A DNA stretch of 64,000 bases, taken from NCBI RefSeq assembly GCF_017348835.2, contig NZ_CP071375.1; one strand, 5' to 3'. Positions within the stretch are counted from its first letter, which is position 1. Each line of letters starts with the position of its first letter. Below the pieces are notes generated by a model. The model saw nothing but the letters and a program-made list of their open reading frames with translations, searched no databases and was not told the origin of the DNA. The DNA comes from Escherichia coli (GTDB lineage: Bacteria; Pseudomonadota; Gammaproteobacteria; Enterobacterales; Enterobacteriaceae). Shown here one piece after another: positions 2,597 through 19,393 of the stretch. A program made the position numbers and the translations under genes.

Positions 2597-2857
2597 TCAG
2601 GTATCATGAAATGATGCAGCATTAATGCATAGTGGTTAAGGATAAAAAAACAACAAAGTTACTGTCTTTTTCAGCCTGTTCATATTTTATAAAGATCTGG
2701 CCACTGGGTGAGTTTTCAATCACCTTTCCTTCCACCTTATATTAAGCCTGGAGGGTTTCAGTTCACGGGCTCATTAGAAAATAATCACAAGATAGCCACT
2801 ATCAAAATTAGCTCATTTTTAATGCGGCTCTAATAATTTTCATCTTTAGGTAACAGG

Positions 2858-4060
2858 TCAGGACGACTTCGCTGCAATCAAATCCTGCGCACAAGCCCAT
2901 GCACTCGACCACGCCCACTGGAAGTTATAGCCCCCCAGCCAGCCGGTGACGTCCATCACTTCGCCGATGAAGTACAGCCCAGGCACTTTGCGCGCTTCCA
3001 TCGTCCGTGAAGAGAGTTCGTTGGTGTCCACGCCGCCGAGCGTCACTTCGGCAGTGCGATAGCCTTCAGTGCCGTTGGGTTGTACGCGCCAGTCGGTCAA
3101 TGTGCTAATCAGTGCCTGTTGGTCACGCACGTTGAGCTGTTTTAGCGAAACATCCGGGATTTGCCCGAGTTGCTGTAAGCGTTCAACCAACCGCTTCGGT
3201 AGATGAACCGCCAGTGTGTTTTTCAGGCTCTGATTCGGATGTGCGTTACGCTGCTCATTCAGGAAGGTTTCGAGGTCCACATCCGGTAGCAGATTGATAC
3301 TGACAAATTCACCCGGTTGCCAGTAGCTGGAAATCTGCAACACCGCCGGTCCAGATAAGCCGCGGTGGGTGAAGAGTAAGTTCTCTCGGAAAACGGTGCC
3401 GTTTTCAGCGGTAATCACGGAAAGCACCGCCACGCCCGCCAGCACCTGTAACTCTTCGAGCAACGGTTTATGCAGAGTGAATGGCACCAGACCCGCGCGG
3501 GTCGGCAGCACGTTGAGACCAAATTGTTCGGCAATCTTATAACCAAACGGCGACGCGCCCAGCCCCGGCATTGACAGCCCACCGGTCGCGATGACCAGCT
3601 TTTCGCAACCGACAGTCATGCCGTTCAGTTCAAGCGTGAAGCCTGTATCATCCTTCTCCACGCTCAGCACTTCGCTACGCAATCTGAAGGTCACATTGCC
3701 CTTCTCGCACTCATCCACCAGCATGTCGACAATCTGCTGCGCGGAGTCATCGCAGAAGAGTTGTCCTAACGTTTTCTCGTGCCAGGCGATGCCGTGTTTA
3801 TTGACCAGATCAATGAAATCCCACTGGGTAAAACGCGCAAGTGCAGACTTACAAAAATGCGGATTCTGGCTCAGATAAGCGCCCGGTTCGACATAAAGGT
3901 TGGTAAAGTTGCAGCGCCCACCGCCAGACATGAGGATTTTGCGCCCTGGTTTTTTACCATTATCGATCAGCAGAACCCGGCGTCCTGCCTGACCTGCCAG
4001 CGCAGAACAGAACATACCCGCCGCACCAGCGCCTATAATAATGGCATCAAACCTTTCCAC
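2858..4060 (-). CDS. yhiN: FAD-binding flavoprotein YhiN (HI0933-like family)
   Basis: 400-aa ORF starting MERFDAIIIGAGAAGMFC (Rossmann GxGxxG); synteny upstream of pitA. Confidence 0.85.
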   Translation of the reverse strand: MERFDAIIIGAGAAGMFCSALAGQAGRRVLLIDNGKKPGRKILMSGGGRCNFTNLYVEPGAYLSQNPHFCKSALARFTQWDFIDLVNKHGIAWHEKTLGQLFCDDSAQQIVDMLVDECEKGNVTFRLRSEVLSVEKDDTGFTLELNGMTVGCEKLVIATGGLSMPGLGASPFGYKIAEQFGLNVLPTRAGLVPFTLHKPLLEELQVLAGVAVLSVITAENGTVFRENLLFTHRGLSGPAVLQISSYWQPGEFVSINLLPDVDLETFLNEQRNAHPNQSLKNTLAVHLPKRLVERLQQLGQIPDVSLKQLNVRDQQALISTLTDWRVQPNGTEGYRTAEVTLGGVDTNELSSRTMEARKVPGLYFIGEVMDVTGWLGGYNFQWAWSSAWACAQDLIAAKSS

Positions 4061-14677: not shown

Positions 14678-15773
14678 TGTGTAAGTTCACAGAGATATTG
14701 CAATTGCCTCCGGATAAGTAAGGGGAGATTGCACTATGCAAATGCAGCATCTGATGGTTGGCTATCCTAAGTACTACCAAACGGCCGATTATGCGTTGAG
14801 GCTTTCAGTGATGGCTGATATAGCAACAATGAGAATGAAGGCTCTGCACTTCTGGGATAAACACGGTATTTCTGCAGCTTCTGAAGCCTTTGGCGTGTCC
14901 TGCCGCACGCTTTACTGGTGGCGTCAGTTACTGAACAAGGAAGGACCTGAGGGGCTAATCCCGCACAGTAAGGCACCTCTGGTGCGACGAAAAAAACACT
15001 GGCATCCCGATGTGCTGAAAGAGATTCGACGCCTCAGGACAGAGCTGCCGAACCTCGGTAAAGAGCAGATTTTTGTTCGCCTGAAGCCCTGGTGCGAACA
15101 GCGCTATCTGGCCTGTCCGAGTGTTTCCACCATCGGCAGAATGATCGCTGCCGCACATGATAAAATGCGGATGATACCTGTGCGTCTGGGATCGCGGGGG
15201 AAGGCACTGCTTGTCAAAAAGCGGTCTGCCAAACCCCGCAGGCCAAAGCACTACCGCCCGGTAAAGACAGGTGAGCTCATTGGGATGGACGCCATTGAGC
15301 TCAGAATGGGCGAACTGCGTCGCTATGTCATCACCATGATCGACGAATGCAGCAATTACGCGCTGGCGCTGGCTGTGCCGTCACTCAACAGTGATATCGT
15401 CAATCACTTCTTCAGCCGCGCAGCCCGGTTGTTCCCGGTCGGTATCAGCCAGATAATCACAGATAACGGAAAAGAGTTCCTGGGAAACTTCGACAAAACG
15501 CTGCAGGAAGCCGCTATCAAACACCTCTGGACCTATCCCTACACGCCAAAAATGAACGCTATCTGTGAACGTTTTAACCGGACGTTAAGAGAGCAGTTTA
15601 TTGAATTTAATGAGATTTTACTCTTTGAAGATCTGGCGCTATTTAACCAGAAGCTGGCGGAATATCTGGTGCTGTATAACAGCAAAAGACCCCACAAGGC
15701 GCTCGCACTAATGACGCCCGTGGAATATATTTTAAAAGAGAATAAAAATTGCAATATGTGGTGGACCCATACA
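14678..15773 (+). mobile_element. insertion sequence, single-ORF DDE (rve) transposase, IS481-family-like, about 1.1 kb
   Basis: Imperfect ~28-bp terminal inverted repeats (left tgtgtaagttcacagagatattgcaatt; right reverse complement tgtatgggtccaccacatattgcaatt) flanked by a 5-bp direct repeat tgtcc (14673-14677 and 15774-15778). Boundaries are uncertain by a few bp. Confidence 0.6.
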
Positions 15774-15818
15774 TGTCCTTGCAATAGTTTCAGTATGGTA
15801 TTAGCATTGATGCGTTAG
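14736..15818 (+). CDS. DDE-type transposase (integrase core domain; N-terminal HTH)
   Basis: 360-aa ORF with HTH (GVSCRTLYWWRQ) and catalytic residues consistent with D (GMDAIE), D (ITDNGKEF) and E (ICERFNRTL) about 36 aa later; the ORF reads 45 nt past the inferred right end of the element. Confidence 0.7.
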   Translation: MQMQHLMVGYPKYYQTADYALRLSVMADIATMRMKALHFWDKHGISAASEAFGVSCRTLYWWRQLLNKEGPEGLIPHSKAPLVRRKKHWHPDVLKEIRRLRTELPNLGKEQIFVRLKPWCEQRYLACPSVSTIGRMIAAAHDKMRMIPVRLGSRGKALLVKKRSAKPRRPKHYRPVKTGELIGMDAIELRMGELRRYVITMIDECSNYALALAVPSLNSDIVNHFFSRAARLFPVGISQIITDNGKEFLGNFDKTLQEAAIKHLWTYPYTPKMNAICERFNRTLREQFIEFNEILLFEDLALFNQKLAEYLVLYNSKRPHKALALMTPVEYILKENKNCNMWWTHTCPCNSFSMVLALMR

Positions 15819-15895
15819 ATGATGGCATTCTCACTCCAGCCAGAGCCACCAACTCTGGGCTGCAAAGTAAAAAACCGACGCAAAGTCGGTTTTTT
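15812..15895 (+). ncRNA. agrA: agrA-like small RNA (repeat copy with intrinsic terminator)
   Basis: Shares the gttagat...ctcactccagccagagccaccaactc...aaaaaccgacgcaaagtcggttttttt core with the downstream copy; candidate -35 ttgcaa (15779-15784) and -10 tagcat (15802-15807) with 17-bp spacer. Confidence 0.6.
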
Positions 15896-16042
15896 TACAT
15901 CCGGATTCGGACAAGGCTTAATATGACGATGACCCAGTGAAAGTATATAAATCGTCACTGCGATATATACCGAAGTGCCCCCTCCGCCAGCTGAAGAAAT
16001 CGCTAATTCTTGCAATGTTAGCCACTGGCTAATAGTATTGAG

Positions 16043-16127
16043 CTGTTAGATAAGAGCTCTCTCACTCCAGCCAGAGCCACCAACTCAGGGCTGGAAAGTA
16101 AAAAACCGACGCAAAGTCGGTTTTTTT
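16043..16127 (+). ncRNA. agrB: agrB-like small RNA (antisense regulator of dinQ)
   Basis: Second tandem copy; -35 ttgcaa (16010-16015), 17-bp spacer, -10 tagtat (16033-16038); about 33 nt (gttagataagagctctctcactccagccagagc) complementary to the dinQ leader copy at about 14510-14542; ends in hairpin + T7. Confidence 0.65.
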
Positions 16128-16161
16128 ACGTCCTGATTCAGACCTCCTTTCAAATGAATAG

Positions 16162-16241
16162 CCAACTCAAAATTCACACCTATTACCTTCCTCTGCACCT
16201 ACGCATTCGTTAAACCATATATGTTTTTGACTTATCCGCTT
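16162..16241 (+). promoter_or_regulatory. ars promoter/ArsR operator remnant (retains -35 TTGACT), downstream part replaced
   Basis: ccaactcaaaattcacacctattaccttcctctgcacctacgcattcgttaaaccatatatgtttttgacttatccgctt closely matches the K-12 Pars region as I recall it; similarity ends after ccgctt. Confidence 0.55.
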
Positions 16242-16242
16242 T

Positions 16243-16292
16243 GGTTTGTAACGCTGGCTGCGCTGGCGCTACGTCTCTCTTTCACTTTGTAA
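16243..16292 (+). pseudogene. arsB: arsB 3'-terminal remnant (last ~16 codons, ...FVTLAALALRLSFTL*)
   Basis: In-frame reading of ggtttgtaacgctggctgcgctggcgctacgtctctctttcactttgtaa ends in a stop 12 nt before the arsC ATG, the expected arsB-arsC arrangement; no arsR or arsB body precedes it. Confidence 0.5.
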
Positions 16293-16304
16293 TGAGATAC
16301 TGAT

Positions 16305-16730
16305 ATGAGCAACATTACCATTTATCACAACCCAGCCTGCGGCACATCGCGTAATACGCTGGAGATGATCCGCAACAGCGGTACAGAACCGACCATTATC
16401 CATTATCTGGAAACACCACCAACGCGCGATGAACTGGTAAAACTCATTGCCGATATGGGGATTACCGTACGCGCGCTGCTGCGTAAAAACGTCGAGCCGT
16501 ATGAGGAACTGGGCCTTGCGGAAGATAAATTTACTGACGAGCGGTTAATCGACTTTATGCTTCAGCACCCGATTCTGATTAACCGTCCGATTGTGGTGAC
16601 GCCGCTGGGAACTCGCCTATGCCGCCCCTCGGAAGTGGTGCTGGAAATTCTGCCAGATGCGCAAAAAGGCGCGTTCTCCAAGGAAGATGGCGAGAAAGTG
16701 GTTGATGAAGCGGGTAAGCGGTTGAAATAA
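16305..16730 (+). CDS. arsC: arsenate reductase (glutaredoxin-coupled ArsC)
   Basis: 141-aa ORF MSNITIYHNPACGTSRNTLEMIRNSG... with catalytic Cys12 context (HNPACGTSRN). Confidence 0.95.
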   Translation: MSNITIYHNPACGTSRNTLEMIRNSGTEPTIIHYLETPPTRDELVKLIADMGITVRALLRKNVEPYEELGLAEDKFTDERLIDFMLQHPILINRPIVVTPLGTRLCRPSEVVLEILPDAQKGAFSKEDGEKVVDEAGKRLK

Positions 16731-16778
16731 AGCGGCTATATCCCCCCCACAGGTTGTTAGAAAAGTGCGCTTTATTTA

Positions 16779-16880
16779 TGTCGGATGCGACGCTGGCGCG
16801 TCTTATCCGACCTACAAGGTTATGAAAATTCGATGAATTGTATGTTATTTGTAGGCCTGACAGGCGTAGCGCATCAGGCG
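16779..16880. repeat. REP/BIME palindromic units downstream of arsC
   Basis: tgtcggatgcgacgctggcgcgtcttatccgacctaca and tgtaggcctgacaggcgtagcgcatcaggcg. Confidence 0.7.
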
Positions 16881-17356
16881 ATTTTGCTATTTACACATTA
16901 CTCCCTGCGTGAGATTCCAATTATCGCGTCCAGCATGGTGTATCAGTGATCTGCTTAGTGATCAGCGATACAGTGCAGCAGTTTAAAGACGTACTGGATT
17001 ATGATTTATCAGTGCTTTACACAACAAATTATTCAATAATTATAAGATACCTTAACCCATTTTATTATTACACATCTAAAACATCACAAAAATATCATTT
17101 CACACACTATCGGAGAACATCATAACTTTTTAAAATGAGCGCTTTTTGATAGTTGTTAACGTTTTCTTTTACGATACTATCAATGCCCTTTTTTATACAC
17201 AAATATTACCGGGTGGAGATAAAAGGGAAGTCAAAGGTAATTATATCAGGAAGATATGACGCATGATATTTATTGTGCGTAGAAGAAAATCCATTCCTGC
17301 TCTAATTATCCAATTTAAAAATCTTAGCATAAAACAGATAATGAATAAGGAATGTT

Positions 17357-18472
17357 ATGTCAATTGACTTTACCCCAGGTGTGATAAATACATATCACGG
17401 CGATATTTATAACCGCACAACAGATACCGACAATGTTAAAACACCAGACACACCGATGTGGCCTTGTGATAATCGGGAAGAACAACAACCCATTAATTCC
17501 ACATTCTCTGGAGAAGGATACAACCCTGAACAATATGATTTAGCGCGGCAACACCTCCCACAAATTTATGCGTGCCGCACGAACACCAAATATACAGATG
17601 CAGACTACTCAAAAGTTGTGGCTCAACTTGTAAGTCTTATTACTAACATTGAATCGATAAGTTCGACACCACTTACGCGGCAGGCACAGGAAATACTTAA
17701 TCAAATTAATAACATTAGATACGAAAAGAACAAAAGTGCTGAATGTCGAATCATTGTTGTCGCTAATCCTAAACCCGACAAGGCAATCATAACTAAAATT
17801 AGCGTAGAAGAGGGAATACCAGTAAGATTCAGTGTCCAAACCATGTTTTCAGATACTAATTTTATTGCTGAACAACGAGCTGACTTACCGACTAATATAA
17901 AAGATATTCAAATCCTGTATCAAAAAATGACGAAGTTATATATTGAACACAGTGAAAATAAAAACAGGATGAAAGTCTTTGCCGGAACCAACTTTATTGA
18001 TTTCAATATGACAGGACAGAACCTGTCCGGGTTCGTTCTAACTTTGTCAAGGTTTTATTTCGAAGATCTACTTAATATAAATTTCACTGACGCAAATTTA
18101 GGTGACACTATTTTTTCACATAAAGAACACCCTACCCCCAAATTATATAAAGACGAACAATATCTTGACAAACAAATCGAAGGTTTATTTTCAACATTAT
18201 TAACCATTAATGACAACTTTTTACGAGCAAAAGCGGAAATTGCTTCGACAATAATTAAATTCTTAGAGGCCAGGATAACCAATCTTTCATACAATGACAT
18301 ATTAAAATATCAGCAAGAATTCCAAAAACAATGTTATAAGCAAGTTAAAGCCTTTACGACACTCTCCCGATACAATAAAATTCAAACATGGGCAGAAATG
18401 TCTGAATATCAATTCGAAGTATTTCAATACGAGACGCTTAACCCAAAAAAATGTCACGTACGCCTTATTTAA
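17357..18472 (+). CDS. AT-rich hypothetical protein with a pentapeptide-repeat tract (intact yhiS-like gene)
   Basis: 371-aa ORF; residues [46 protein letters not shown] place F/L/M at every fifth position for about 9-10 repeats, usually preceded by N/D (A[DN]LXX pattern). Position between arsC and slp matches yhiS. Confidence 0.6.
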
Positions 18473-18826
18473 AGAGGCCACTTCCTAATGAAAAAGATAT
18501 ATATTATGGGGTGGAAATAGAAATACCATCTGGCAAAAGAATTCGCTTATCAAATCATTATCAGAATATAATACCATAATATTGATTATTAGCACTTTAT
18601 AATTATTGAATAAAAATATATTTTATGTAATTTTAAAACAAAGGATTATATTATGGGGCGATGGATACTCATGTCACGCCCCAAAATCAATGGAATTGAA
18701 CTAAACAGAAGGGATATAAACATCAGACAGGTTTACGTTACTATCAGGCATATCGCCTCAGAATCAGATGAAAACTATAAAGAAATATCTATTATGGTTT
18801 TAATATTTGTTGATAAGGATAGTAAC

Positions 18827-19393
18827 ATGAACATGACAAAAGGTGCACTCATCCTCAGCCTTTCATTTTTGCTTGCCGCATGTAGTTCAATTCCGCAAAA
18901 TATCAAAGGCAATAACCAACCTGATATTCAAAAAAGTTTTGTTGCTGTTCATAACCAGCCGGGGTTATATGTTGGTCAACAAGCGCGCTTTGGCGGGAAG
19001 GTTATCAACGTTATCAATGGCAAAACGGATACGTTGTTAGAAATCGCTGTATTACCGTTGGATAGCTATGCGAAACCTGATATTGAAGCCAACTATCAGG
19101 GCCGACTGCTCGCCAGACAAAGCGGCTTCCTTGATCCAGTGAACTATCGTAATCACTTTGTTACCATCCTCGGTACCATTCAGGGTGAACAACCCGGCTT
19201 TATCAATAAAGTCCCGTATAACTTCCTGGAAGTGAATATGCAGGGCATCCAGGTGTGGCATTTGAGAGAAGTGGTTAATACCACCTATAACCTGTGGGAT
19301 TACGGCTATGGTGCATTCTGGCCGGAACCGGGCTGGGGTGCGCCTTACTACACCAATGCGGTGAGTCAGGTAACACCTGAGCTGGTCAAATAA
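18827..19393 (+). CDS. slp: starvation-inducible outer-membrane lipoprotein Slp
   Basis: ORF 18653..19393 trimmed to in-frame ATG at 18827 giving MNMTKGALILSLSFLLAACSS (lipobox LAAC), 188 aa. Confidence 0.85.
   Translation: MNMTKGALILSLSFLLAACSSIPQNIKGNNQPDIQKSFVAVHNQPGLYVGQQARFGGKVINVINGKTDTLLEIAVLPLDSYAKPDIEANYQGRLLARQSGFLDPVNYRNHFVTILGTIQGEQPGFINKVPYNFLEVNMQGIQVWHLREVVNTTYNLWDYGYGAFWPEPGWGAPYYTNAVSQVTPELVK

Follow-up and report, generated by a model that had tools for sequence, protein, structure and literature searches.

The arsC-yhiS interval of Escherichia coli: an AT-rich yhiS upstream region of a kind catalogued in K-12, with gene relics at its left edge

A K-12 promoter island and its counterpart

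Promoter islands of Escherichia coli are AT-rich segments with very many potential transcription start points, which are bound by RNA polymerase and yield almost no full-length transcript; 78 of them have been listed (Panyukov and Ozoline, 2013; PMC3661553). One of these in K-12, island 3648929_470, is 470 bp long, lies between arsC(+) and yhiS(+) and was scored 'A', that is, bound by H-NS in every compiled ChIP data set (PMC3661553, Table 1). It falls within a predicted genomic island and is associated with predicted foreign genes (PMC3661553, Table 1). The original definition of a promoter island uses PlatProm, and the K-12 orthologue of the DNA described here falls under it (PMC3661553). 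In addition, yhiS is named among the high-affinity StpA loci (2026 preprint).

The DNA considered here, referred to as the window, is a stretch of 64,000 nt that originates from an E. coli chromosome, and positions are counted along it. Positions 16731-17356 are 100% identical to strain PE164, where the annotation lists, in order, gorA, dinQ, an IS481-family transposase, arsC, a 626-bp unannotated gap, a frameshifted yhiS, slp, dctR and chuS. The gap comprises the 626 bp between the arsC stop (16730) and the yhiS ATG (17357), and 16890-17356 makes up its right three quarters. The flanking genes are as follows.

16305-16730, plus strand: arsC, a 141-aa ORF, glutaredoxin-dependent arsenate reductase according to the annotation of the 100% identical PE164
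17357-18472, plus strand: yhiS, frameshifted allele, 371 aa against 407, labelled 'frameshifted' by PGAP in PE164

A preliminary description, made from the letters of the sequence, had presented 16890-17356 as a strongly AT-rich non-coding stretch of about 470 bp with several A/T tracts. Both statements hold. These 467 bp have a G+C content of 32.3%, the whole window one of 49.4%; a value as low occurs in just 2.4% of all 467-bp segments. The density of TpA steps is about double the window average (0.105 vs 0.051). There are 13 runs of A or of T of at least 4 bases and 10 runs composed only of A/T of at least 8 bases, all of them within 17026-17331. The stretch is no uniform feature, however, and consists of two unlike parts: 16890-17019 has 41.5% G+C and 17020-17356 has 28.8%, so that the truly AT-rich part is 17001-17356 (about 29% G+C). 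Low G+C also extends past 17356 to about 18850, taking in yhiS (35.6%) as well as the spacer between yhiS and slp (29.9%).

The preliminary description proposed a comparison with the K-12 arsC-yhiS interval, which proves to be collinear with that of the window and 95% identical to it; in the K-12 MG1655 RefSeq record nothing is annotated there. If the offset between two K-12 genome versions is 1,977 bp, as we take it to be, island 3648929_470 corresponds to K-12 3650906-3651375 and to about 16974-17441 of the window, covering 82% of 16890-17356. As a cross-check, the same offset places the neighboring island 3651288_639 (insH_11/slp) between IS5 and slp. The K-12 island and its counterpart in the window are orthologous, AT-rich and located beside a predicted foreign gene, and in K-12 this DNA is furnished with many promoter-like sites and is H-NS-bound. 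They differ in that the window allele departs from K-12 at about 5-7% of positions, and in that yhiS is disrupted by IS5 in K-12 but frameshifted in the window. A second promoter island is found just upstream of slp in K-12.

A broader comparison can be made with H-NS/StpA xenogeneic silencing, for example at slp-dctR and the acid-fitness-island promoters. The window likewise combines low G+C with high TpA, at the point where the AT-rich yhiS-slp block begins. Unlike the silencing systems compared, yhiS has no anti-silencing activator that we know of. YdeO was considered and rejected as a regulator of yhiS, since its ChIP site in the neighborhood lies upstream of slp and yhiS is not induced by YdeO. 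As an AT-rich, H-NS-silenced promoter region, the K-12 interval is already known; the small addition made here is that its left edge, in K-12 too, is the scar of a lost pair of genes for an ArsR-type regulator and an ArsP-type permease.

Gene relics and the two arsC-yhiS alleles

Among 5426 complete E. coli genomes surveyed, 3165 contain the whole interval, referred to as the short allele. A large second group of genomes matches only its right half, and in members of this group such as A1_136 two extra genes are located between arsC and yhiS. An intact regulator-permease pair occupies this position in 2220 of the 5426 genomes (about 41%), so the arsC-yhiS interval is polymorphic, with one allele that has this part of an extended arsenic-locus module and one that lacks it. 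Both the window and K-12 carry the deleted, short allele.

The regulator of the long allele in A1_136 (WP_001175589) is a 98-aa protein of the ArsR/SmtB family encoded on the minus strand. It matches Pfam HTH_20/HTH_5 and reaches 61.9 bits with NCBIfam NF033788, for which the cut-off is 55. The permease (WP_001389872) comprises 333 aa, is encoded on the plus strand and matches Pfam ArsP_1 (PF03773) with 180 bits, while falling far below the cut-offs of the NCBIfam Cu/Zn-efflux and SaoE equivalogs. The intact permease, at 2736-3737 of the A1_136 long-allele sequence, also contains the string TPFCSCS and a cysteine-rich loop (CC...CC...CC), features that presumably resemble the methylarsenite-efflux signature of ArsP.

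Two segments of the window align with these genes.

16874-16942, minus strand: relic of the 3' end of the ArsR/SmtB-family regulator gene, comprising the last 22 codons and the original stop, with one internal stop
16956-17012, plus strand: relic of an internal segment of the ArsP_1-family permease gene, about codons 203-221 (~19 codons)

Both are relics and no longer genes. The regulator relic translates as YTMLDAIIGISRRE*CVNSKIA*, compared with YAMLEAIIEFLREECCVNSKIA* in the intact A1_136 gene (asterisks are stops); 15 of the 22 residues match, and at the DNA level 65 of 79 positions are identical over 16863-16941. The version of this relic in strain 1919D3, at 95.7% identity to the intact gene, is labelled by PGAP as a partial 'transcriptional regulator' pseudogene. 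The ArsR/SmtB winged helix-turn-helix reading frame is not intact in the window, residues 13-64 of the intact protein having been deleted. For the permease relic, local DNA alignment with 3343-3399 of the A1_136 long-allele sequence gives a score of 23, against 10.5 +/- 1.3 and a maximum of 15 in a shuffle control (n=300). Its peptide ...DTVQQFKDVLDY matches ...DALQQFKDVLPY, with QQFKDVL common to the relic and the intact permease, and in K-12 a stop codon interrupts the frame. The PF03773 reading frame is not intact in the window either, where similarity is confined to about 19 codons.

The relics align to both genes of the A1_136 module in the same order and orientation, but only ~22 and ~19 codons are left, with stops among them; nothing survives of the helix-turn-helix domain or of the transmembrane parts. 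The short allele lacks roughly 1.5 kb of the long one, and homology resumes at about 17001, the right-hand junction. The deletion breakpoints are identical in the window, K-12 and 1919D3; that they coincide across phylogroups A and B2 and the window strain points to one common origin. Because pieces of both genes have been kept, the short allele appears to derive from a long-type ancestor via two deletions, of roughly 0.9 and 0.6 kb. These would have taken the divergently arranged regulator and permease genes, sparing the last 22 codons of the former and a ~19-codon piece from the middle of the latter, and leaving about 16874-17012 as probable non-functional debris. A 14-base imperfect direct repeat brackets the permease relic (ATGGTGTATCAGTG at 16935-16948 and ATGATTTATCAGTG at 17001-17014) and may mark the deletion junctions, or microhomology involved in the deletions.

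The preliminary description had suggested that the stretch might hide a remnant of another gene. This is correct for the left part, about 16874-17012, which holds the 3' end of an ArsR/SmtB gene and an internal piece of an ArsP_1 gene; 17001-17356 is upstream DNA of yhiS. Given the relic alignments, about the first quarter of the stretch does align to coding gene fragments, an outcome that the same description had named as speaking against its reading. Part of the apparent 'intergenic regulatory DNA' is pseudogene debris, which bears mainly on correct annotation.

The AT-rich core upstream of yhiS

To the right of the relics, the following features were recognized.

17001-17356, plus strand: AT-rich core, the putative yhiS upstream region (promoter and leader), delimited by composition and by homology in the short and long alleles
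17016-17043, 17069-17098, 17146-17175, 17314-17342 and 17315-17342, plus strand: sigma-70 promoter-like sites from a consensus scan, all pointing toward yhiS
17102-17155, plus strand: predicted hairpin in the putative yhiS leader, from the MFE fold and the RNAalifold consensus, weak evidence
17347-17359, plus strand: Shine-Dalgarno-like AAGGA (17347-17351) and the yhiS ATG (17357), read off the sequence

The core is common to both alleles and is a single-copy chromosomal sequence. A search of plasmids matched it only to chromosome-sized records, and the region is therefore not mobile. In a collection of genomes from 100,044 species, a 24-mer pattern scan gave no match, the phylogroup B2 allele (IHE3034) departing from the pattern at a single base. 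The only match from a 21-mer pattern scan was one of 25/26 bases in an archaeal MAG, attributable to chance. One T-run, at 17189-17194, is polymorphic in length, with six T in the window and IHE3034 and seven to eight in other strains.

Promoter prediction had been proposed together with prediction of small RNAs. The sigma-70 consensus scan of 16600-17500 found 6 sites, all on the plus strand, compared with 2.8 +/- 1.5 in shuffles. Each of them agrees with 9 of the 12 consensus positions, a weak match, and the sixth (17445-17473) falls within yhiS. The AAGGA ends 5 bases ahead of the yhiS ATG.

The explanation we consider well favored is a yhiS promoter region silenced by H-NS, of a known type, with pseudogene debris at its left. 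According to this explanation, 17001-17356 would be the promoter and leader of yhiS and the left edge of a ~1.9-kb AT-rich block formed by yhiS and the yhiS-slp spacer. Very low G+C, many TpA steps and overlapping promoter-like sites would make it a platform for RNA polymerase, H-NS and StpA, and the coating of this AT-rich DNA by H-NS and StpA would keep yhiS essentially silent. Occupancy by H-NS and StpA and low transcription are taken from the K-12 literature (H-NS and transcription, PMC3661553; StpA, 2026 preprint). The assignment of 17001-17356 as probable H-NS-bound regulatory DNA is supported only through homology, by the K-12 ChIP data, and we infer that the same silencing operates in the window strain. 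The view in the preliminary description of the whole stretch as H-NS-bound regulatory DNA can accordingly be retained, by way of K-12, for 17001-17356.

Within 16890-17356, the high-affinity H-NS motif TCGATAAATT has no match with up to 2 mismatches, and the 10-11 bp periodicity of AA/TT that would reveal phased A-tracts is no better than in shuffles. Consequently, the case for H-NS that can be drawn from the sequence is one of composition. A nucleation motif and phased A-tract curvature are common in H-NS-silenced regions, though not obligatory.

An alternative view is that the AT-rich stretch is functionless DNA decaying beside an often pseudogenized gene, its composition resulting from foreign origin and mutation bias under relaxed selection, with H-NS binding passively. 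Several observations agree with it. Of the 8 strains inspected, 4 carry a disrupted yhiS, owing to a frameshift in the window and O121:H19, to IS5 in K-12 and to truncation in IHE3034; the adjoining DNA is demonstrably gene debris; and the T-run indel is accompanied by substitutions scattered throughout. In a comparison of seven strains, identity of the core to the window amounts to 88-93%, the same as for the 5' half of yhiS, whereas slp is at 99%; diverging as fast as the gene, the core shows no sign of extra constraint. However, at least 80% of the core is covered in 5376 of the 5426 E. coli genomes (99%), and among the seven strains it contains several invariant 20-22-base blocks, while the Shine-Dalgarno-like sequence, the start codon of yhiS and the neighboring bases are invariant as well. 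Moreover, yhiS is intact, with 407 aa, in A1_136, CUVET19-1993 and HR12-1. Taken together, we regard pure decay as unlikely. It partly overlaps the explanation by H-NS silencing and does not shut it out: with yhiS disrupted here and in several other strains, any 'regulatory' role of the region may now be largely vestigial.

Two further alternatives would place a gene product in the interval. The first, an unannotated small RNA or a structured cis-regulatory leader, had been raised in the preliminary description and appears improbable in the extreme. In its favor, the predicted plus-strand fold of 17020-17356 is a little more stable than those of shuffled sequences (z = -2.16, with 1 of 100 shuffles as good), and the consensus fold again contains the hairpin at 17102-17155. 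The pairs of this hairpin are mostly invariant, however, with 0 compensatory changes and several sequences that break pairs. On the minus strand the fold has no advantage over shuffles (z = +0.24), and covariation contributes only -0.68 kcal/mol to the fold of the 7-strain alignment, in which 'compensatory' pairs are found only in non-homologous misaligned columns or in one single pair. When 15800-19000 was compared with Rfam at E <= 1, no match fell within 16890-17356 (AgrA/AgrB matches appeared upstream of arsC), a terminator scan found no such site on either strand, and K-12 MG1655 has no ncRNA annotation in the interval. Rfam, terminator scan and folding left the small RNA half of the proposed predictions without support.

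The second, a small protein gene such as the 59-aa ORF at 16946-17125 or one of the 34-37-aa ORFs at 17146-17367, is scarcely credible. Such ORFs do exist in the window, but none of five (the 59-aa ORF and four smaller ones) is intact across 7 strains, in which stops, frameshifts or lost starts interrupt them; the T-run indel shifts the frame of the small overlapping ORFs. The longest, with a GTG start, begins within the permease relic and is stopped in K-12. These ORFs are unannotated in every record inspected, and PGAP places nothing in the 626-bp gap of the 100% identical PE164. The preliminary remark that the stretch contains no ORF of note is consistent with these data. In the absence of an Rfam family, a terminator, covariation or a conserved small ORF, neither a small RNA nor a small protein finds support. 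The AT-rich leader might still act through a cis-acting RNA element, for example the hairpin at 17102-17155, or through regulatory short transcripts of the promoter island. We hold this to be very doubtful; if true, the leader would be more than a passive H-NS platform.

Sequences on either side of the interval

The part of the gap that the preliminary description omitted, 16731-16889, contains two palindromes of the REP type.

16778-16879, no strand assigned: two REP-type palindromic units (about 16778-16816 and 16850-16879), recognized from inverted repeats and repeat matches

As in REP/BIME elements, 16778-16879 consists of imperfect G+C-rich palindromes that have further matching places in most genomes. 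In the E. coli genomes searched, the REP part of the query is found at a median of 2 and up to 4 places per genome, and 16778-16815 has a 100% match elsewhere in a chromosome. Sub-threshold Rfam matches at 16769-16858 correspond to the REP-derived naRNA4 and to ES036.

The YhiS protein has no relative in Pfam, NCBIfam or PDB. Its residues at about 205-254 display sub-threshold similarity to pentapeptide repeats (PF00805, E = 0.46; PDB 2f3l, E = 0.084). Compared with the intact protein of A1_136 (407 aa), the window version shows 93% identity for 365 aa and diverges after that, the frameshift being located near codon 366 (about 18450-18472). A sharp change in divergence is found to the right of the gene: arsC, the intergenic DNA, yhiS and the yhiS-slp spacer (16305-18826) share 88-96% identity with other E. 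coli, compared with 99% for slp (18827-19393). Identity to A1_136 is also mosaic, with 99% in the 3' half of yhiS and 92.6% in the 5' half. This pattern of divergence suggests old alleles shuffled by recombination.

Further upstream, the window differs from K-12 by an insertion and a deletion. The insertion, of 1093 bp (14679-15771), is flanked by dinQ and the small RNA gene agrA, with 43 bp between its end and the AgrA match (15815-15898), and carries an IS481-family transposase ORF (14736-15818) that reads past the insertion end. An 8-bp overlap of the flanking alignments at the insertion suggests a target-site duplication. The deletion, of 1686 bp with its junction at 16241-16244, removed arsR and almost all of arsB, of which the last 49 bp remain (16244-16292). 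This leaves arsC an orphan, with agrB (16046-16129) immediately upstream of it. Strain IHE3034, of phylogroup B2, likewise has neither arsR nor arsB.
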